Below are positions 6,130-59,162 of a stretch of DNA of 64,000 nucleotides, in pieces. The translations under genes were made by a program, and so were the position numbers. The notes beneath the pieces were generated by a model, which was not told the origin of the DNA, did no database searches, and saw only the letters and a list, made by a program, of their open reading frames with translations. The number at the start of each line of letters is the position of its first letter. Position 1 is the stretch's first letter. This DNA comes from Escherichia coli (GTDB lineage Bacteria > Pseudomonadota > Gammaproteobacteria > Enterobacterales > Enterobacteriaceae): assembly GCF_044324875.1 (NCBI RefSeq), contig NZ_CP172185.1. The stretch is one strand, 5' to 3'.

Positions 6130-6627
6130 TTAAGCAGCTTCTTTCGCATCGCGTACAGCAGCCAGAGTACGAACCAGTTTGCCAGCCGAAGCTTCTTTCA
6201 TGGTTGCCATCAGGCGTGCAATTGCTTCTTCGTAGGTCGGCAGAGTTGCCAGGCGGTCGATCTGAGACGCCGGGATCAGCTCACCTTCAAAGGCAGCGGC
6301 TTTGACCTCAAATTTTGCATTCGCTTTCGCGAACTCTTTGAACAGACGAGCAGCAGCGCCCGGGTGTTCCATAGAGTATGCAATCAGGGTCGGACCAACA
6401 AACGCGTCTTTCAGGCACTCGAACGGAGTACCTTCAACAGCACGGCGCAGCAGGGTGTTACGAACAACACGCATGTATACGCCAGCTTCGCGACCTGCTT
6501 TACGCAGTTCAGTCATTTTATCTACAGTCACGCCACGGGAATCCGCAACTACTGCAGACAGCGCGCCTTTGGCTACTTCGCTGACTTCAGCAACAATCGC
6601 TTGTTTGTCTTGAAGATTTAAAGCCAT
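6130..6627 (-). CDS. rplJ: 50S ribosomal protein L10
   Basis: ORF translation [63 protein letters not shown]..., 165 aa. Confidence 0.97.
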
Positions 6628-7043
6628 TAGCTTTGCTCCTGGATGTTTGCCAGAGAAAATCTCTGGAACTCACTTCACTCCTCCAAACGGAGAGAGCGTC
6701 TTAATTACGGTGAGCAGAAACAAGCCAGAATATAAAAGAATAATCTTAGCGTTCTGTCACCGTCTACGCAGGGGATTAAGTTTCTTGCGAAACTCCTGCG
6801 GTCTTCGACGGAGGCCTGGATAGGCCAGGCTCCAACGAACAAATCTTTTCTATCCGTCGCTATTCAGCTTGTGGTGGCGTTGGTTGGCTTCCTTCGTTCG
6901 CACCAGTCACATAGTTAGCTATGCTCCTGGCGACTCACTCAGTTGCCGCCTTGCCACAACCCGAATATCTCGGACATACGTCTGCATTAAGCATTATACG
7001 TGGGGGTAAGATTGTAGACAAAATCACCGCCCACGTAAAGGCA
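6628..7043 (-). promoter_or_regulatory. rplJ leader region (long 5' UTR carrying the L10 promoter and L10(L12)4 autoregulatory site)
   Basis: About 416-nt non-coding gap between rplA stop and rplJ start, as in the E. coli rplKAJL-rpoBC cluster; exact sites not mapped by eye. Confidence 0.5.
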
Positions 7044-8243
<1,200 letters not shown>

Positions 8244-8338
8244 TTACGGGCAAGGCCCATAAAAACAAAAGGCGCGAAATTGTATTCCAATCTCGCGCCT
8301 TGTGCAACGATTAAATCGCCGCTTTTTTGATCGCTGGG

Positions 8339-8884
8339 TTAGGCTTTTTCAACCTGGCTGAAGTCCAGCTCTACCGGGGTCGCACGACCGAAGATAGAAA
8401 CAGACACTTTCAGACGAGATTTCTCGTAATCCACTTCTTCAACAACACCGTTGAAGTCAGCGAACGGACCATCATTAACACGGACCATTTCACCCGGTTC
8501 AAACAGCGTTTTCGGACGCGGCTTATCACCAACCTGCTGCAGGCGGTTCATAATCGCATCGACTTCTTTATCGCTGATTGGTGCAGGACGATCGGAAGTA
8601 CCGCCGATGAAGCCCATCACACGCGGTACGCTGCGCACCAGGTGCCAGCTCGCGTCGTTCATCACCATCTGAACGAGGACGTAGCCAGGGAAGAATTTAC
8701 GTTCGCTTTTGCGACGCTGACCGCCACGGATTTCAACCACTTCTTCGGTTGGTACCATGACTTCACCAAACAAATCTTCCATGTTGTGTAATTTGATATG
8801 CTCACGCAGCGACGTTGCTACGCGGCCTTCAAAACCGGAAAACGCCTGAACGACGTACCAGCGCTTTTTAGGAGCTTCAGACAT
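8339..8884 (-). CDS. nusG: Transcription termination/antitermination factor NusG
   Basis: ORF translation [73 protein letters not shown]..., 181 aa. Confidence 0.97.
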
Positions 8885-43598: not shown

Positions 43599-43906
43599 AA
43601 GCTGCTCCCGGGCTTGCAAAAGCCCATGTCCATATTTTTGATGGAGGAAACAATAGGCAATCGCAGGCGGAGCAAACAGTGGATAAAAAGGCCATTTACT
43701 GGACTTTTGTAATATCAGTACAAAAATGCGATCCGCCTCATAACTTGCGGCAACCCGGAAGCATGCCGCAAAACGGCGTCTTGTGAGACGCGTCGCAAAT
43801 TGACGGTTACATTACATTTGTCCAGCTTTTGGCAGATTTGTCACATGGCAGGCCGTTGCCGTGCGCTCTTATCCTGTAAACAGAAAACCGTACCGGGAGA
43901 GAGGCA

Positions 43907-52677: not shown

Positions 52678-53571
<894 letters not shown>

Positions 53572-53604
53572 TTACCTCATCAATCGCTTGTCGTTATATG
53601 TTGT

Positions 53605-53650
53605 GTTGTGAACATCTATCCATTTAGACGTCCAGATGTAAAGATGAAGG
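53605..53650 (-). promoter_or_regulatory. metF promoter with MetJ operator (met boxes)
   Basis: On - strand upstream of metF: ...TTACATCTGGACGTCTAAATGGATAGATGTTCAC..., tandem AGACGTCT-like met boxes. Confidence 0.7.
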
Positions 53651-53863
53651 AAAAGCCGAGGGGCGTCAACCGAAAAATGACCAATGATGGTGAGGAAAAA
53701 TCAGGGAAGTTGAAAAAAACTCATCTTAATTAGAGGCGATAAAAGATTTCTCTATAGAGCAATCCACCTCGCACGTTTTGACTGATATTCTGACAACACA
53801 GCGACACCTGGGCTTATTCGAAAAACAACGTCCTGCCACCGGATGGTGATGCTAAGGCATCTG

Positions 53864-53893
53864 ATTCGGCCTGCGCCCTCGCGTAGGCCGAAT
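53864..53893. repeat. REP-like palindromic element
   Basis: ATTCGGCCT-N12-AGGCCGAAT perfect 9-bp inverted repeat with no adjacent T-run, lying between the metF promoter and the accessory insert. Confidence 0.4.
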
Positions 53894-53949
53894 ACTGGAT
53901 CTGCAAAATCAACTGGTAACAAACAGATGAATCAACTCAATACGTACTT

Positions 53950-55503
53950 TTACTTGATATCTTTCACGCGCATACCGTTGATCTGTTCATCCGTGATGGT
54001 GTTACCCGCTTTGAAGTAATCAACCACGGCGTGATAAACGTAATAACCGCCCGTTGTGTTACGCGCTTTCCCTTCGGTAAAGGCGGTAAAACCATCTCCA
54101 CCATCAGCAAGGAAACTCTGAGTAGCAATGTGGTAAATCGTCGCATCTTCAATGGGTTTGCCATTCAGAGTCAGTGTGATTACCCGCTGACCAACCGGTT
54201 TGCTGCTGTCGTACTTCATTTCCAGGCCTTTCGATACCTGTAAAACGCCATTACTTAAACTTGCGCCGTGTTCCATCAAACTGCGTAATTGTTTACCTGT
54301 GAGATCCATCGTCACCAGTTCATTGGGGAACGGGAAGGTACTGATGACGCCGCCCATCGTAATCGCCCCTGCGGGGATCTCATTGCGAATGCCGCCAGAG
54401 TTGGTTAACGCCAATTGGGTGTTTTTACCCGCCGCTACCAGTAAAGCATCAGCCGCCAGGTTCCCGAGGGAAGCCGATTCACCATAGGCACGTTTTAATT
54501 CAACCGGCGATTTCGCGACCGTTTGTTGCACCACTTCATCAAGCTTTTTATTCCAGCCGTCGATCACCTGTTTCGTTTGCGGATCGGGCTTCCACTCATC
54601 GGCGTAAATGGTTTTAAGCTCGAAGTTTTTCACCGTAAAATCATGCGGCTTCTCTTTGTAGTCGAGGACCAGTTTGCCCACATCAATCCCGCCGCTGTCA
54701 GTGGAGAGGATGAGCGTATTGCCGACTTTAATCGGTTCCGGCGTACCCACATGTGCATGTCCGGTGATCAAAATATCCAGCCCTTTCACCTGACTTGCCG
54801 TCTGAATATCTTTATCCAACGCGCGACGCACATCGGTCCCTCCCATACTGGACTGGCGGGCCGGAACACCTTCGTGGATCAGGGCGACGGTCAAATCAAC
54901 CTTGCCTTTGAGTTCATCGATATAACGTTGTAGCCATTTAATTTCATCACGCGCCTCAATACCCACTCGCGTTGCCGCAGATACCGTGTCATTAAAGGCA
55001 AATACACCGTGCAAACCTATAACGCCTATTTTCACACCGTCTTTTTCGATGATGGTATAGGGCTTATCCCAGAATGATTTACTGCTGTTCTGATAAAAAA
55101 CATTGCCCTGCACAATCGGGAATTTTGCCTGACTCAACTGTAATAATGTGTTGTCCCAGCCGTGGTCAAATTCATGGTTGCCTATCGTGACGGCATCAAA
55201 CGGCATAGTATTCATAATATCGATAATAGCCTTACCTTTGGTCAGGCTGCTGATATAGGGCCAGGTAAAATAGTCGCCCGCATCAAAAAACCATGTCGCT
55301 TTATTTTTTGCTTTTTCTTGCTTAACCAGCGTAGTGATATTTGCCCAGCCGCCAATATCCCGTTTACCGTCAGCGATCCACGGCACTTTATAAGGCTCGA
55401 CATGTGCATGGAGGTCGTTGGTATAAATGATGGTGACATCTTTAGCGCAAGCCCAGAATGGCAGTGTTAATGCGATACCCGCAGCAAGTATTTTAATTTT
55501 CAT
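53950..55503 (-). CDS. Secreted bifunctional metallophosphatase / 5'-nucleotidase (UshA/CpdB family); not present at this locus in K-12
   Basis: 517-aa ORF: N-terminal signal peptide [20 protein letters not shown]; metallophosphoesterase motifs DLHAH, GDYF, GNHEFD, GHAHV; C-terminal 5'-nucleotidase motifs [20 protein letters not shown]; good SD (AAAGGGA) upstream. Confidence 0.85.
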
Positions 55504-55559
55504 AAACAGTCCCTTTCAGTGAGATAAAGGATTGCTACATTACGTTCTGAAAGAGTTAT

Positions 55560-55581
55560 TTATGTGAGAGTAATCACATCC
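55560..55581. promoter_or_regulatory. Candidate cAMP-CRP binding site in the divergent promoter region of the two accessory genes
   Basis: TTATGTGAGAGTAATCACATCC: TGTGA-N6-TCACA half-sites at 55563..55578, about 65 bp from each start codon. Confidence 0.5.
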
Positions 55582-55635
55582 ACAGGGGAGCGTTGCCGGA
55601 CAAAATCAACGACCATGTGAAATCGTTGGTGATAT

Positions 55636-56766
55636 ATGTCGACTCTGTTTACGATTAATGCCTGCAAGTCGTTTGGTTGCCGTAATTTAGGGCAGCCAAC
55701 ATCGACAGATTATAGCTGGCCCGACTATCGACTGGGTTATCCGGCATTGCACTGTCGGGCATGTGGCAGTTACCCGCCGTTGTTTGACGAGCAACAATTT
55801 CGTGACTGGTTGACAGTTCACTTATCTACTTTTGCAACAGAGAAAGGCCATTTTTGCCCGGTATGTTATGGCACAGAGACGATTTGTTATGGTCACAATC
55901 CACAGGGTTCGCAACGCATTCAATGCCGTAACTGCAAAAAAGTATGGACACCCAAACAATATCAGAAAGAAATAACGCCTCCCGAAATAATCGAAACGGT
56001 TGCTTTTCTCGTGCCATTTCAGGGAGTCAGCAGCGGGCAGAAACTGTATGTTTTAATCAGTTTTGATGCTCTTCGCGGTAATATTCTTCATCTTTCTACT
56101 AATTACACGCAGCATCAGGCTGGAGAAAGTCTGCATTATCGATACAGAGGAAATGCAGAACCAGAGTTACACGACAATAATATTGTACAACGCGTTGATA
56201 TGCGCGAAGCACAATTTCTACGCCGCAGTCAGTTTGATGAAATTCAGTATGGCAGCGCAGCGCTCAAGCGCAATGCCAAAGGCATTATTCTGCGTCCGGT
56301 TATCACAGCGCACGGGCATTTTAGAGTACTGAATATTTTATTCCCTACAGTAAAAACACATGTAATTTCACACGAGTGTTTTTTAAGAGGTGCGATTATT
56401 ACGGCCTGGGCAGAACTGTTTCGCCAACAGCAAGGTGAGATTTGGTTTATTGAAGAGGAAATAGCTGACTATACCGATAATACGCCCTGGCGTTTTCAGG
56501 GAACAACTTATCACGGCTGGTGGAAAAATCAGTGGCAACTTTGGGGTCAGGGCAAAAATCGTAAAATGGTATGTGCATTAACAGGCGGAAATAACAGCAA
56601 AGCTGAAATGCTCTCTTTCGCAACCAGCAGACATTTTATCGACTGGCTACATAAACAAGCAGTATTTACTCACAGCACCCCGCTTTCCGCAGGGCGCGTT
56701 ACGCAAATACTGCTTTCTCTGGCTCAGGATTACAACAACTGCGCCAGCCGGTTGATATCCGACTGA
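55636..56766 (+). CDS. Cys-rich hypothetical protein with two N-terminal zinc-ribbon motifs (second resembles transposase-type IS1 InsA / IS1595 ribbon) and an unrecognised C-terminal domain; not present in K-12
   Basis: 376-aa ORF in AT-richer DNA; CKSFGC...HCRAC and CPVCYGTETICYGHNPQGSQRIQCRNCKKVW (compare IS1 InsA CPSC...GHQRYLCSHCRKTW); last ~12 codons overlap the metL 3' end on the opposite strand. Confidence 0.7.
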   Translation: MSTLFTINACKSFGCRNLGQPTSTDYSWPDYRLGYPALHCRACGSYPPLFDEQQFRDWLTVHLSTFATEKGHFCPVCYGTETICYGHNPQGSQRIQCRNCKKVWTPKQYQKEITPPEIIETVAFLVPFQGVSSGQKLYVLISFDALRGNILHLSTNYTQHQAGESLHYRYRGNAEPELHDNNIVQRVDMREAQFLRRSQFDEIQYGSAALKRNAKGIILRPVITAHGHFRVLNILFPTVKTHVISHECFLRGAIITAWAELFRQQQGEIWFIEEEIADYTDNTPWRFQGTTYHGWWKNQWQLWGQGKNRKMVCALTGGNNSKAEMLSFATSRHFIDWLHKQAVFTHSTPLSAGRVTQILLSLAQDYNNCASRLISD

Positions 56767-59162
56767 ATCGCCCCGGCGGTGACATCGCGCCCTGCGCCTG
56801 GTCCGCGGATCACCAGAGGGTTATCGCGATACCAGCGGCTTTCGATGGCAAAGACGTTATCGCACGGCAGCAGTGATGCCAGCGGATGGTCTTCACGCAC
56901 CGCTTCCACGCCCACACGCGCTTTGCCATTGGCATCGAAACGCGCCACATAGCGCAGCACCAGCCCCATTTCGCGGGCCGCTTCCAGTCGTTGCACCATC
57001 TGCTCGTTAAGTTCATCGCCGTTTTCAAAGAAATGGTCGATGCTACCGCCTTCGCAATGGGCAGGCACCAGCGATTCCACGCGCACCTGATCTGGTTCGA
57101 TGTCGTAACCCGCTTCACGCGCCAGAATCACCAGCTTGCGCATCACGTCTTTGCCGGAAAGGTCATCACGCGGATCAGGCTCGGTTAAGCCCTGCTGCCA
57201 CGCCTGATCCACCAGCTCGGTAAACGGCACGCTACCGTCGAATTGCAGGAACAGCCAGGAGAGCGTGCCGGAGAAGATCCCGCTGATCGACAAAATAGTA
57301 TCGCCGCTGTCGATCAGATCGCGCACGGTATGGTTGATCGGCAAGCCCGCACCGACGGTGGCGTTGTACAGCCAGTGACGCCCGGTTTTTTCGAAGGCGT
57401 CGTGGATCTGGCGATATTTATTGCTGTCGCTGGCTCCCGCCAGTTTGTTGGCGCTGATGACGTGGAAACCGTGGCTGGCAAAATCGAGATACTGATCAGC
57501 AAGCTGCTGGCTGGCGGTAACGTCCAACACCACTAAATCATCATACGGATGGGCGCGCATCCACAGGAACAGCGACTCTTCATCCTGCTCGACCGCTTCA
57601 TCGTTGAAGAAGGCTAACGCGCGGCTGGCGTCCAGCCCGTCATAGCTCAACAGGCTGCGGCGGCTGTCCACCACGCCTGCCAGCACAAATTCAAAGCCGG
57701 TACGCGCCGAAAGCGTGCTCTGCTCACGGGCGAACAGTTCCAGCCAGCGGGAACCGATATTGCCCTTGCCGAACAATACCAGGCCGATGCGTTTTTCTGC
57801 GCGGAAGACGGACTGATGCAGCCCCTGAATCAGGCTTTCGGTTGGTCCGGTGCGCAGTACTGCCACCAGGCTGATGCCGTCATCGGACTGCCAGGTAAAT
57901 TCGACCGGCTGGCCTTTCAGTTGCTGCCAGAAGCGGTGGCAATGCAGCGGGTTACGGGTGACACCCGCCCCAACCATCGCCACCAGCGCCAGCCCCTGAC
58001 GCAGGCGCAGTTCGCCAGGTAATCCCGCTTCGTCGAGGATTTTCAGCGCACTGTCGGCCACTTCTGAGGTGTAGCAAAATTGCAGCAACTGGCGATCGTT
58101 ATGCACGCCAACCGCCAGTGGGCGCACCTGAGCACGTTTCAGGATCTGGTCGATCTCTTTATGCGCCAGTTTGAAATCCTGGCTGGCGGGCACCTGAAAC
58201 TCAATCAAGCAGACATCATCATGGCTGGTGACAATACGCGCACCAGTACCGGAGGCCAGCACGCGTTCAATGCGCGTGGAACCTTGATCCGGCGTGTAGC
58301 TACAGCGCAGTTGCAGGTCGATTTCGCTGCCAGAAACTGGCTGTAAAGTACGGGCGTGAAGAACGGGAGCCGCCAGACGCGCCAGTTCGCTGGCCTCATC
58401 CAGACGCAGCAACGGCAGCAGGCAGGCATCTTTCACTTTACGCGGGTCGGCGCTGTATACCCCGGCGACGTCGCTCCAGATGGTTACGCGGGAAACTCCC
58501 GCCAGCGCACCGATTTGTGTCGCGGAATAGTCGGAACCGTTACGCCCCAGCAGCACCGTTTCACTGGCGTTGTTACGGCTGATAAACCCGGTCACCACCA
58601 GACGTTTGCCCGGATGTTGTACCAGTAGCTGTTGCAGCAACGGGTAAGAAAGTCCTTCATCAACCTGCGGTTGCGCAGCGCGTTCAGCGCGTAAAAACTC
58701 GCGGGCATCAAGCCAGGCCGCTGGCAGCCCTTGTTGATTAAGTACCGCAGACATCAGGCGCGCCGACCACACTTCGCCGTGGCCCACCACTTCCGCATAC
58801 ACCGCGTCGTTAATACCGCTGTCGAGCAGCGCCGCCAGGCGTTCCAGATCGCTGACAAAAGCGCTAATGAGGCTATCGGCTTCTTCGGCGGGTAACAGGC
58901 CGCTAATCAGATCGCACTGATAGCGACGCAGCGTTTGTTGAACCTGATGCGCAGAGAGACGATCGGTCTGGCTTAGTTTCAACCAGTTAATCAACTGGTT
59001 AGTGGTGCTACCGGCGGCGGAAACCACCATCATATCGTCAGGCTGAGAGTACTCCGCCATAATGCCCGCGACACGCAAATAACACTTCACATCAGCCAGA
59101 CTACTGCCACCAAATTTATGCAGTTGACGACCTTTCGCCCCTGCCTGCGCAATCACACTCAT
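56730..59162 (-). CDS. metL: Bifunctional aspartokinase II / homoserine dehydrogenase II
   Basis: ORF translation MSVIAQAGAKGRQLHKFGGSSLADVKCYLRVAGIMAEYSQPDDMMVVSAAGSTTNQLINWLKLSQTDRLSAHQVQQTLRRYQ...DINRLAQLL, 810 aa. Confidence 0.96.
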   Translation of the reverse strand: MSVIAQAGAKGRQLHKFGGSSLADVKCYLRVAGIMAEYSQPDDMMVVSAAGSTTNQLINWLKLSQTDRLSAHQVQQTLRRYQCDLISGLLPAEEADSLISAFVSDLERLAALLDSGINDAVYAEVVGHGEVWSARLMSAVLNQQGLPAAWLDAREFLRAERAAQPQVDEGLSYPLLQQLLVQHPGKRLVVTGFISRNNASETVLLGRNGSDYSATQIGALAGVSRVTIWSDVAGVYSADPRKVKDACLLPLLRLDEASELARLAAPVLHARTLQPVSGSEIDLQLRCSYTPDQGSTRIERVLASGTGARIVTSHDDVCLIEFQVPASQDFKLAHKEIDQILKRAQVRPLAVGVHNDRQLLQFCYTSEVADSALKILDEAGLPGELRLRQGLALVAMVGAGVTRNPLHCHRFWQQLKGQPVEFTWQSDDGISLVAVLRTGPTESLIQGLHQSVFRAEKRIGLVLFGKGNIGSRWLELFAREQSTLSARTGFEFVLAGVVDSRRSLLSYDGLDASRALAFFNDEAVEQDEESLFLWMRAHPYDDLVVLDVTASQQLADQYLDFASHGFHVISANKLAGASDSNKYRQIHDAFEKTGRHWLYNATVGAGLPINHTVRDLIDSGDTILSISGIFSGTLSWLFLQFDGSVPFTELVDQAWQQGLTEPDPRDDLSGKDVMRKLVILAREAGYDIEPDQVRVESLVPAHCEGGSIDHFFENGDELNEQMVQRLEAAREMGLVLRYVARFDANGKARVGVEAVREDHPLASLLPCDNVFAIESRWYRDNPLVIRGPGAGRDVTAGAIQSDINRLAQLL

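Follow-up and report, generated by a model that had tools for sequence, protein, structure and literature searches.

The promoters that serve nucleoside utilisation in Escherichia coli (tsx, deo, udp, cdd, nupC and nupG) are CRP-dependent, the InsA protein of the insertion sequence (IS) IS1 is itself a DNA-binding repressor, and bacterial transcription factors derived from TnpB (e.g. bioRxiv 10.1101/2023.11.30.569447) are reportedly exapted transposon proteins. In this work we analysed a locus that can be compared with all of these, namely a pair of divergently transcribed genes located between metF and metL in E. coli contig NZ_CP172185.1 (assembly GCF_044324875.1). One gene encodes a 517-aa 5'-nucleotidase of the UshA family and the other a 376-aa cytoplasmic protein. 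Unless a locus number is given, all coordinates refer to the window, i.e. the whole stretch of 64,000 nt that was analysed. A larger form of the same locus was catalogued in a comparative paper from 2026 (PMC12928451) as the genomic region GR31 (metL..metF) of strain BEN2908, an extraintestinal pathogenic (ExPEC) and avian pathogenic (APEC) E. coli. The passages of that paper devoted to GR31 name only a Tsx-like and three UshA-like open reading frames (ORFs) for the region, and suggest for them a function in nucleoside processing and transport. GR31 corresponds to a six-gene form known from phylogroup B2, whereas the window contains a two-gene form.

We propose that the DNA at 53719-56729 is probably a catabolite-controlled nucleotide-scavenging module, of which the transposase-derived partner of the nucleotidase is the dedicated regulator. 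The island and the structure of the nucleotidase were already known, while the role of the 376-aa family and its association with nucleoside genes are a new, previously unremarked lead.

The divergent pair, its control region and the nucleotidase

Orthologous loci were collected by a profile search of genome contigs with a 12-sequence alignment, the reach of which is confined to Enterobacterales. In all 29 enterobacterial loci obtained in this way, most of which lie between metF and metL, the nucleotidase gene is positioned immediately upstream of the 376-aa gene and divergent from it. The same divergent pair was also found elsewhere, at loci that have no relation to metF-metL, in Enterobacter, Pluralibacter, Silvania, Rahnella and Klebsiella sp., and as a second copy in Citrobacter sp.; these copies are often accompanied by a Tsx channel and extra nucleotidases. 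Since the divergent pairing is kept in at least three unrelated genomic contexts, we regard the two genes as functionally linked, a point on which the initial annotation, made from the sequence of the window, had declared itself unable to decide. Beyond the orthologues, nine distant homologues of the 376-aa protein (19-40% identity) were sampled, and every one of them is encoded directly beside nucleoside or nucleotide genes: a 5'-nucleotidase (four homologues), a NupC-type transporter with or without a purine nucleoside phosphorylase (PNP) (two homologues), and, in one homologue each, a deoB-PNP-NupG-type operon, an add-deoCABD-like operon beside a Bmp nucleoside ABC transporter, and PNP.

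The two genes of the window share a divergent control region of 132 bp (Table 1), in which conserved blocks stood out when nine loci, representing at least seven genera, were aligned. It contains a predicted CRP site, TGTGAGAGTAATCACA, which is an exact match to the consensus core TGTGA-N6-TCACA and the only one in the 64 kb (0.11 expected), and both of its half-sites are kept in the nine loci. The centre of the core is ~67 bp from the ATG of the nucleotidase gene and ~65 bp from the ATG of the 376-aa gene, a position that would be compatible with back-to-back class II CRP-dependent promoters, and the CRP geometry suggests TAATGT (55543-55538, minus strand) and CAAAAT (55601-55606) as candidate -10 elements. 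Of the two further blocks, both near-invariant, TTACGTTCTGAAAG recurs with at most one mismatch in Klebsiella sp., E. hormaechei and E. vonholyi, and may be a core promoter or an operator. The other block, CAAAATCAACGACC-N5-AAATCGTTGGT, includes the inverted repeat CAACGA/TCGTTG (55607-55628), which was also scored as a stem-loop; it is a candidate for an operator, a -10 region or a hairpin in the 5' untranslated region. CRP-like sites are present also in control regions beside distant homologues. A scan for the sigma-70 consensus reported a single match, located inside the nucleotidase coding sequence, which was disregarded. The only other site in the window that approaches the CRP consensus is TGTGAGACGCGTCGCA at 43782-43797, with 1 mismatch.

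These observations can be assembled into the following scheme, in which CRP binding, the positions of the promoters, the regulatory activity and the physiological substrate are all predicted. CRP with bound cyclic AMP would activate the nucleotidase gene when preferred carbon sources are absent, and the single CRP site between the genes would put both promoters under catabolite control. The exported nucleotidase would dephosphorylate nucleotides outside the cytoplasm, and the resulting nucleosides would be taken up; the larger island would add a dedicated Tsx-type channel and paralogous enzymes. The 376-aa protein would be the specific regulator of the promoter pair, either as a DNA-binding or as a ligand-sensing protein. 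Its short form, if it binds DNA, would do so via zinc ribbons or an RNase-H-like domain (see below), or it would act through another protein such as CRP.

The 517-aa protein comprises the Pfam domains Metallophos (PF00149, E-value 1.7e-11, residues 24-252) and 5_nucleotid_C (PF02872, E-value 1.1e-38, residues 335-477), and the motifs characteristic of metallophosphatases (DxH, GD, GNHE, H and GHxH) are intact in its translation as NDLHAH, DAGD, GNHEFD, LIHEG and GHAHV. Over residues 19-517 it exhibits ~98% identity (E = 0, 1111 bits) to the protein of the PDB entries 3IVD and 3IVE, titled "Nucleotidase", which are reportedly structural-genomics entries for c4898 of E. coli strain CFT073 with bound uridine and cytidine; no published enzymology of these entries was found in the literature searched. 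The score against the UshA equivalog NF007109 is 147.5 bits with a cutoff of 600, and the protein is also far below the cutoffs of the CpdB, NadN and SoxB equivalogs, which argues that it is a distinct paralogue and not the UshA orthologue. It belongs to a paralogous clade of its own, of which strains of phylogroup B2 possess up to three copies. In a search for a phage origin, its match in PHROGs was a family of unknown function. The N-terminus resembles an export signal, and residue 19 is the first that aligns with the crystallised chain; the enzyme is predicted to be exported and cleaved at this signal. The ratio of nonsynonymous to synonymous substitution rates (dN/dS) of the gene is 0.02-0.06.

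The copy in the window carries a private missense change, G81W, directly after the GD motif. Glycine occupies this position in 46 of the 48 family copies in the fetched loci, in the PDB protein and in the closest genome (ECA64), while the exact 61-mer with W81 occurs in none of the 1208 complete E. coli genomes that carry the gene. G81W could be either an inactivating mutation or a sequencing error. In Salmonella arizonae (S. enterica subsp. arizonae, locus L041) the same glycine is replaced by valine, and the 376-aa gene of that locus (L041 ~6368-8744) is split in two, i.e. an apparent pseudogene, so that the two genes may be decaying together.

The 376-aa protein as a putative regulator of transposase descent

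Sequence libraries reported only weak matches for the 376-aa protein, limited to residues 74-105 and corresponding to zinc ribbons of the IS1/IS1595/InsA type (NCBIfam IS1_IS1595_Zn, E-value 2e-4, residues 74-105, 21.8 bits with a curated cutoff of 28; Pfam Zn_ribbon_InsA, E-value 0.023 for the query, with 9 of the 51 sequences in the family alignment at 1e-3 or better and a best value of 1.4e-7; the IS1 equivalog NF033558, 21.1 bits with a cutoff of 100, residues 74-120 only; PHROGs, only a weak transposase zinc-ribbon match). The similarity of the ribbon extends to the N-terminal domains of IS1, IS1595, IS1249 and IS256. None of the 51 members matches Pfam DDE_Tnp_IS1, no Pfam family spans the core of the protein, and neither Pfam nor NCBIfam reported a domain of the LacI/GalR or DeoR type. 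When 1.84 billion representative proteins were scanned exhaustively with HMMER, only 120 clusters of the family were identified, and in AFDB50 its members are found in Enterobacteriaceae, Vibrionaceae, Serratia and Proteus, under the labels "cytoplasmic protein", "InsA N-terminal domain" and "IS1 family transposase".

Because the search of the PDB with the family profile returned nothing except spurious matches to cysteine-rich C2H2 zinc fingers, we resorted to fold comparison, in which the confident model of the protein was found to be similar to solved members of the RNase-H-like/DDE-transposase fold. In the C-terminal domain R197 and H228 are invariant, and H246-E247, W296 and W300 near-invariant, among the 51 sequences. 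A conserved DDE triad is absent from these homologues: no aspartate or glutamate is invariant and only E247 reaches at least 90% conservation. Judging by the order of the predicted strands, the first and second catalytic positions would be occupied by T121 and P221. Some relatives are longer (~420-530 aa), with an extra segment that follows the second ribbon and folds into three helices in the model of one of them (predicted local distance difference test score, pLDDT, of 93); these long forms match positions 1-85 of the IS1 transposase model, which encompass the InsA ribbon and a helix-turn-helix (HTH), with E-values of 1e-9 to 1e-4. The 376-aa gene itself is under purifying selection (dN/dS 0.13-0.18 within the Escherichia clade, 0.055 in comparison with Kosakonia). 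The ribbon matches are weak but consistent. The protein appears to descend from an IS1-type transposase, of which it would keep the ribbon and the RNase-H fold, and to have lost the features expected of an active one.

We propose the role of a regulator for the 376-aa protein because of the divergent layout with a conserved control region, because of the apparent InsA ancestry, because the long forms retain the ribbon together with the HTH, and because the family consistently adjoins catabolic or uptake operons with different substrates. In a more general version of this prediction, for which we see an about even chance, the whole family would be a so far unrecognised group of transcription factors that arose in bacteria by exaptation of an IS1-type transposase, with the ribbon, alone or with the HTH, serving in DNA recognition and the dead RNase-H domain in sensing or oligomerisation. 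Together with CRP, and as a counterpart of CytR/DeoR, it would control genes for the scavenging of nucleosides and nucleotides (5'-nucleotidases, Tsx, NupC/NupG, deo and PNP) in hosts that include Enterobacteriaceae, Vibrionaceae, Serratia and Proteus, with one offshoot on sulfatase operons.

Several points weigh against the regulator assignment and the scavenging module built on it. One paralogous clade (~421 aa, 23-26% identity) is encoded at the end of an operon for a porin-like protein, an arylsulfatase and an anaerobic sulfatase maturase, and not beside nucleoside genes. The short form found in E. coli and other enterobacteria has neither the InsA-like HTH insert nor the C-terminal helical tail of the long forms. 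The conservation in the control region might reflect no more than a core promoter, a ribosome-binding site and CRP elements. An operator motif shared across the homologue loci was not demonstrated, and the weak recurrence of AACGAT/CAACGA-type half-sites, accompanied by locus-specific palindromes, is a lead only. The nucleotidase of the window may be impaired by the private G81W change. Finally, no functional study (expression, binding or phenotype) of either gene was found in the literature searched.

The sulfatase-operon clade (L044-L050; e.g. L048 4501-9245 and L044 4353-9236) is represented in Citrobacter, Franconibacter, Atlantibacter, Buttiauxella, Kluyvera and Enterobacter pulveris, and a CRP-like site precedes the operon in both of the loci that were inspected.

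It is possible, although in our view unlikely, that the 376-aa protein is instead a non-regulatory partner in nucleoside or nucleotide metabolism (a binding, modifying or nucleic-acid-processing protein), in which the RNase-H-like domain has acquired a new activity, the transcription of the pair being governed by CRP, perhaps with CytR, only. The nucleoside-gene neighbourhoods indeed reveal a linkage and not its kind, the short form has no HTH insert, and the conserved residues Y168, R197, Y205, H228, H246, E247, W296 and W300 could form a ligand-binding or active site. However, a single conserved acidic residue (E247) is too few for a nuclease of the RNase-H type, and a divergent gene pair with a strongly conserved common control region is the classic layout of a regulator and its target. 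The long forms, moreover, keep the InsA-type DNA-binding module of ribbon and HTH, and the members in sulfatase operons fit a regulator family with varied targets better than they fit a nucleoside-specific enzyme.

Table 1. Features of the metF-metL region, in window coordinates
Feature	Coordinates	Strand	Basis or remark
metF	52678..53568	-	left neighbour
Left module flank, 3' of the nucleotidase gene, unique relative to K-12	53719..53949		K-12 homology ends at 53718
REP-like palindrome ATTCGGCCTGCGC/GCGTAGGCCGAAT	53864..53893		13-nt arms, 92% complementary
517-aa gene, UshA-family 5'-nucleotidase	53950..55503	-	ORF
Private missense G81W (GGG -> TGG), glycine of the DAGDYFTGP motif	55261..55263	-	codon read directly
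N-terminal export-signal-like sequence (first 20 residues, then KD)	55444..55503	-	hydrophobic core followed by A-C-A
Divergent control region common to both genes, 132 bp	55504..55635		conserved blocks
Conserved block TTACGTTCTGAAAG	55540..55553		between CRP site and nucleotidase start; near-invariant
Perfect CRP consensus core TGTGA-N6-TCACA (TGTGAGAGTAATCACA)	55563..55578		predicted site, exact match
Conserved block CAAAATCAACGACC-N5-AAATCGTTGGT	55601..55630		just 5' of the 376-aa gene start; near-invariant
376-aa gene, cytoplasmic protein, proposed regulator of the module	55636..56766	+	ORF
Zinc ribbon 1 (C10, C15, C40, C43)	55663..55764	+	cysteines at least 90% conserved in 51 members
Zinc ribbon 2, putatively IS1/InsA type (C74, C77, C97, C100)	55855..55935	+	C97 and C100 invariant in 51 members
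RNase-H-like core (~residues 118-315)	55987..56580	+	fold comparison
Strong stem-loop, metL-sense strand, 15 nt after the metL stop	56657..56715	-	antisense within the 376-aa coding sequence
Convergent overlap of the 376-aa gene with metL, 37 bp	56730..56766		ORF coordinates
metL	56730..59162	-	right neighbour

History and distribution of the metF-metL slot

The initial annotation had described two divergent genes between metF and metL that are missing from K-12, and this is what we observed: both ORFs are present in the window, while the metF-metL gap of K-12 MG1655 measures 348 bp and contains neither gene. It had further interpreted the pair as an insertion relative to the short K-12 spacer, which needs qualification. 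In a pairwise BLAST comparison the homology to K-12 is lost after 53718 and returns at 56729, at the stop codon of metL, and between these breakpoints K-12 holds 198 bp of unrelated sequence of its own; we therefore regard 53719-56729 as a replacement and not as a clean insertion. This K-12 filler (L002 1818-2016) contains an element resembling repetitive extragenic palindromic (REP) sequences, and a 45-aa hypothetical ORF annotated in RefSeq (L002 1743-1877) spans the K-12 breakpoint upstream of metF. The filler is similar to neither form of the island, hence K-12 cannot be derived from either of them by simple deletion; the possibility that it is a remnant of the metL-tsx spacer of the B2 type was ruled out by the lack of similarity.

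The distribution of the pair was assessed in 5426 complete E. coli genomes, of which those with at least 80% of the window segment 53400-56900 were counted as carriers. There are 1837 of them (34%), and the remaining 66% of the genomes are empty like K-12. The junction of the window, at which the 376-aa gene meets metL with its 3' end, occurs in 1182 genomes (22%; e.g. E. coli 042). The larger six-gene form, present in 659-661 genomes (12%), differs in that the 376-aa gene is separated from metL by a frameshifted nucleotidase, by a third nucleotidase and by a Tsx-like channel. The pair is missing from O157:H7 Sakai, in which metL and metF are ECs4869 and ECs4870. The 376-aa gene is found at a median of one place per genome, and RefSeq labels the two proteins "bifunctional metallophosphatase/5'-nucleotidase" (517 aa) and "hypothetical" or "cytoplasmic" protein (376 aa). 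The slot is also filled by the pair, with the same metL-overlapping junction, in E. whittamii and in Escherichia sp. isolate MOD1-EC7003, and it is filled in at least nine other genera (among them Pseudocitrobacter, Citrobacter, Kosakonia, Phytobacter, Klebsiella, Superficieibacter, Kluyvera and, for Salmonella, S. arizonae). The arrangement is not unusual, and as a presence/absence polymorphism it is ordinary, common, annotated and, as GR31 in the passages cited above, already catalogued; it is nevertheless confined to a minority of E. coli genomes and absent from K-12, and the 376-aa protein is uncharacterised.

In the six-gene strain E. coli IHE3034 the spacer between the 376-aa gene and the next nucleotidase (L003 6360-6591) contains the CRP-like site TGTTACTAAGATCACA (6479-6494), and this next nucleotidase (L003 6592-8143) is annotated as frameshifted. 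This suggests a separate, putatively CRP-dependent promoter for the nucleotidase-nucleotidase-Tsx group, one paralogue of which would be decaying. The slot took up other cargo in some genera: in Citrobacter (L005 4899-6273) a LysR-type regulator and a gene of the carboxymuconolactone-decarboxylase family are located between metF and the nucleotidase, and in Kluyvera (L040, L043) ~4 kb of extra DNA separates the 376-aa gene from metL.

In a neighbour-joining tree the 376-aa genes of Escherichia (GC content 0.45-0.47) cluster with copies at other loci from Enterobacter, Rahnella, Pluralibacter and Silvania, and apart from the copies of Citrobacter, Klebsiella and Kosakonia that reside between metF and metL (GC content 0.50-0.57). 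Between the window and Pseudocitrobacter the synonymous divergence (dS) of the pair (0.27, 376-aa gene; 0.35, nucleotidase) is much lower than that of metF (1.16). Between the window (55636-56766) and a B2 strain (L003 5235-6359), on the other hand, it amounts to 1.11 for the 376-aa gene versus 0.15 for the nucleotidase and 0.22 for metF, which points to a recombination boundary in the 132-bp control region or close to it. The same values (1.1 for the 376-aa alleles, 0.15-0.22 for their neighbours) rule out that the window form is a recent deletion derivative of the six-gene B2 form. Taken together, the metF-metL slot is an old home of the module in Enterobacteriaceae with a mosaic history, in the course of which the module was exchanged horizontally and recombined within the locus, and the Escherichia allele is part of a horizontally moved low-GC clade. 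Because the same metL-overlapping junction is found in E. whittamii and MOD1-EC7003, a loss in the K-12 lineage is more parsimonious than a gain in the strain of the window. For the state of K-12, a loss or a replacement is a simpler explanation than an ancestral site that was never modified.

With this history in mind we consider it improbable that the locus is what the initial annotation proposed, i.e. a recent foreign accessory islet whose genes were merely acquired together, with K-12 as the unmodified ancestral site. The horizontal component of that proposal is borne out by the low GC content (0.42-0.51 inside the region versus 0.54-0.62 in metF, metL and katG, so that the DNA is indeed richer in AT than its neighbours), by the dS of the pair against Pseudocitrobacter, far below that of metF, and by the clustering of the Escherichia allele with copies from unrelated loci of other genera; two thirds of the E. 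coli genomes are, moreover, without the pair. Other observations speak against it: the same slot and junction recur in E. whittamii and MOD1-EC7003, the slot is filled in at least nine other genera, the K-12 site is not clean and contains 198 bp of unrelated, REP-containing filler, and the pairing at no fewer than three unrelated loci and among very distant homologues means that the joint travel of the two genes is not accidental. Nor were the hallmarks of classical genomic islands (association with a tRNA or integrase, flanking direct repeats) detected, as no tRNA and no Rfam family or structured RNA were found at the junctions, no integrase was found among the ORFs of the region, and the search for direct or terminal inverted repeats flanking either gene or the whole region returned chance-level short matches only. 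The earlier statement that integrase, IS, tRNA and direct repeats are missing is thus upheld with the exception of the IS, where it overlooked the transposase-derived 376-aa protein.

The idea that the 376-aa gene encodes a transposase of the IS1 family, either still active or decayed only recently, and is placed beside the nucleotidase incidentally, is largely refuted and very improbable. It could be advocated on the grounds of the ribbon similarity to IS1, IS1595, IS1249 and IS256, the RNase-H/DDE-like fold and the "IS1 family transposase" label of relatives in AFDB50. However, the match to the IS1 equivalog (21 bits against a cutoff of 100) covers the ribbon only, DDE_Tnp_IS1 matches none of the 51 members, and there is neither a conserved DDE triad nor any terminal inverted repeat or target duplication, while the gene is present in one copy per genome, in stable synteny across genera and with dN/dS values of 0.05-0.18. 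Most improbable of all is an anti-phage or other conflict system, acting e.g. by nucleotide depletion: the locus is accessory, variably present and AT-richer than its surroundings, and nucleotide-degrading enzymes occur in some defence systems, but PADLOC reported 0 families for either protein, the nucleotidase is a UshA-type scavenging enzyme with an export-signal-like N-terminus and a solved structure, the neighbours at related loci are catabolic (Tsx channels, nucleoside transporters, deo genes), and the CRP site is typical of catabolic operons.

As regards the borders of the module, no ORF of at least 60 aa lies wholly inside the left flank. The REP-like palindrome pointed out there in the initial annotation is real, if of modest stability: it sits 57-86 nt 3' of the nucleotidase stop codon and forms a hairpin, the fold energy of which modestly beats that of shuffled sequences (z = -2.3). 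It is not a canonical intrinsic terminator, as no T-run follows it on the nucleotidase strand. The region upstream of metF (53569-53718) contains repeated AGACGTC-like MetJ-box sequences (e.g. TTTAGACGTCCAGATGT) and is intact in all three forms of the locus; the left breakpoint falls just past it.

At the right border the junction is as tight as had been noted, with the 376-aa ORF running antisense into metL: the last ~10 residues of the protein (NNCASRLISD) are the antisense reading of the final metL codons, and conservation within the family extends as far as ...DYN, beyond which the homologues diverge. The stem-loop predicted on the metL-sense strand has a folding energy of -42.8 kcal/mol (z = -6.4; 0 of 200 shuffled sequences as stable). 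A comparable stability was observed mostly in genera in which the gene abuts metL (z from -1.9 to -4.6) and not where the gene sits elsewhere (z from -0.8 to +1.8); C. braakii is an exception (the gene abuts metL, z = +0.4), and Superficieibacter, with metL ~98 bp away, has no hairpin (z = +1.0). The stem-loop may be the metBL terminator, and transcriptional interference between the met regulon and the convergent 376-aa gene is possible.

Comparison with known systems

If the 376-aa protein is a regulator, bacteria would clearly have turned a DDE-type transposase into a transcription factor of the host, an example of which was not found in the literature searched. The scavenging of nucleotides and nucleosides would then be under an additional control in enterobacteria (including ExPEC, Klebsiella, Citrobacter and Enterobacter) and in vibrios, and a widespread annotation error would be corrected, as the label "IS1 family transposase" is wrong for the family. 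The locus offers a simple test system, in which a single promoter and a single CRP site are combined with one candidate regulator and an enzyme of solved structure.

On the side of the enzyme, the closest known proteins include UshA, CpdB, NadN, YfkN and CD73, which share with the 517-aa protein the pair of Pfam domains, the metallophosphatase motifs and an export-signal-like N-terminus. From the UshA of E. coli, a periplasmic UDP-sugar hydrolase and 5'-nucleotidase, it differs in belonging to a paralogous clade and in not being its orthologue. The protein of 3IVD/3IVE has the same two-domain UshA-type architecture, and the copy in the window deviates from it by W81.

On the side of its partner, the second four-cysteine ribbon of the 376-aa protein appears InsA-like and is followed by an RNase-H-like fold of the catalytic type, as in InsA/InsAB' of IS1. 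In contrast to IS1, it contains an additional N-terminal ribbon, lacks the conserved DDE triad, terminal repeats and the programmed frameshift architecture, and is single-copy and syntenic across genera; the form found in E. coli has also lost the HTH. The TnpB-derived factors represent the same concept, namely a nuclease-fold transposon protein that has lost catalysis and is encoded in a single copy beside the host genes it controls. They differ from the present family in their ancestor (TnpB/RuvC versus a DDE/IS1-like protein), in that no sign of a guide RNA was seen here (no Rfam match), and in that regulation by the 376-aa protein is our prediction.

With respect to the genes concerned, the CytR/CRP nucleoside regulon (tsx, deoCABD, udp, cdd, nupC, nupG) exhibits the same theme, and the same gene families are found beside members of the 376-aa family. 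Its promoters and the module have in common a strong CRP site in the promoter region. Unlike the CytR targets, the module reveals one clear CRP site instead of the typical tandem sites, and its partner protein is devoid of a LacI/GalR or DeoR domain; thus, the 376-aa protein may work like the CytR/DeoR regulators without being a member of their family.

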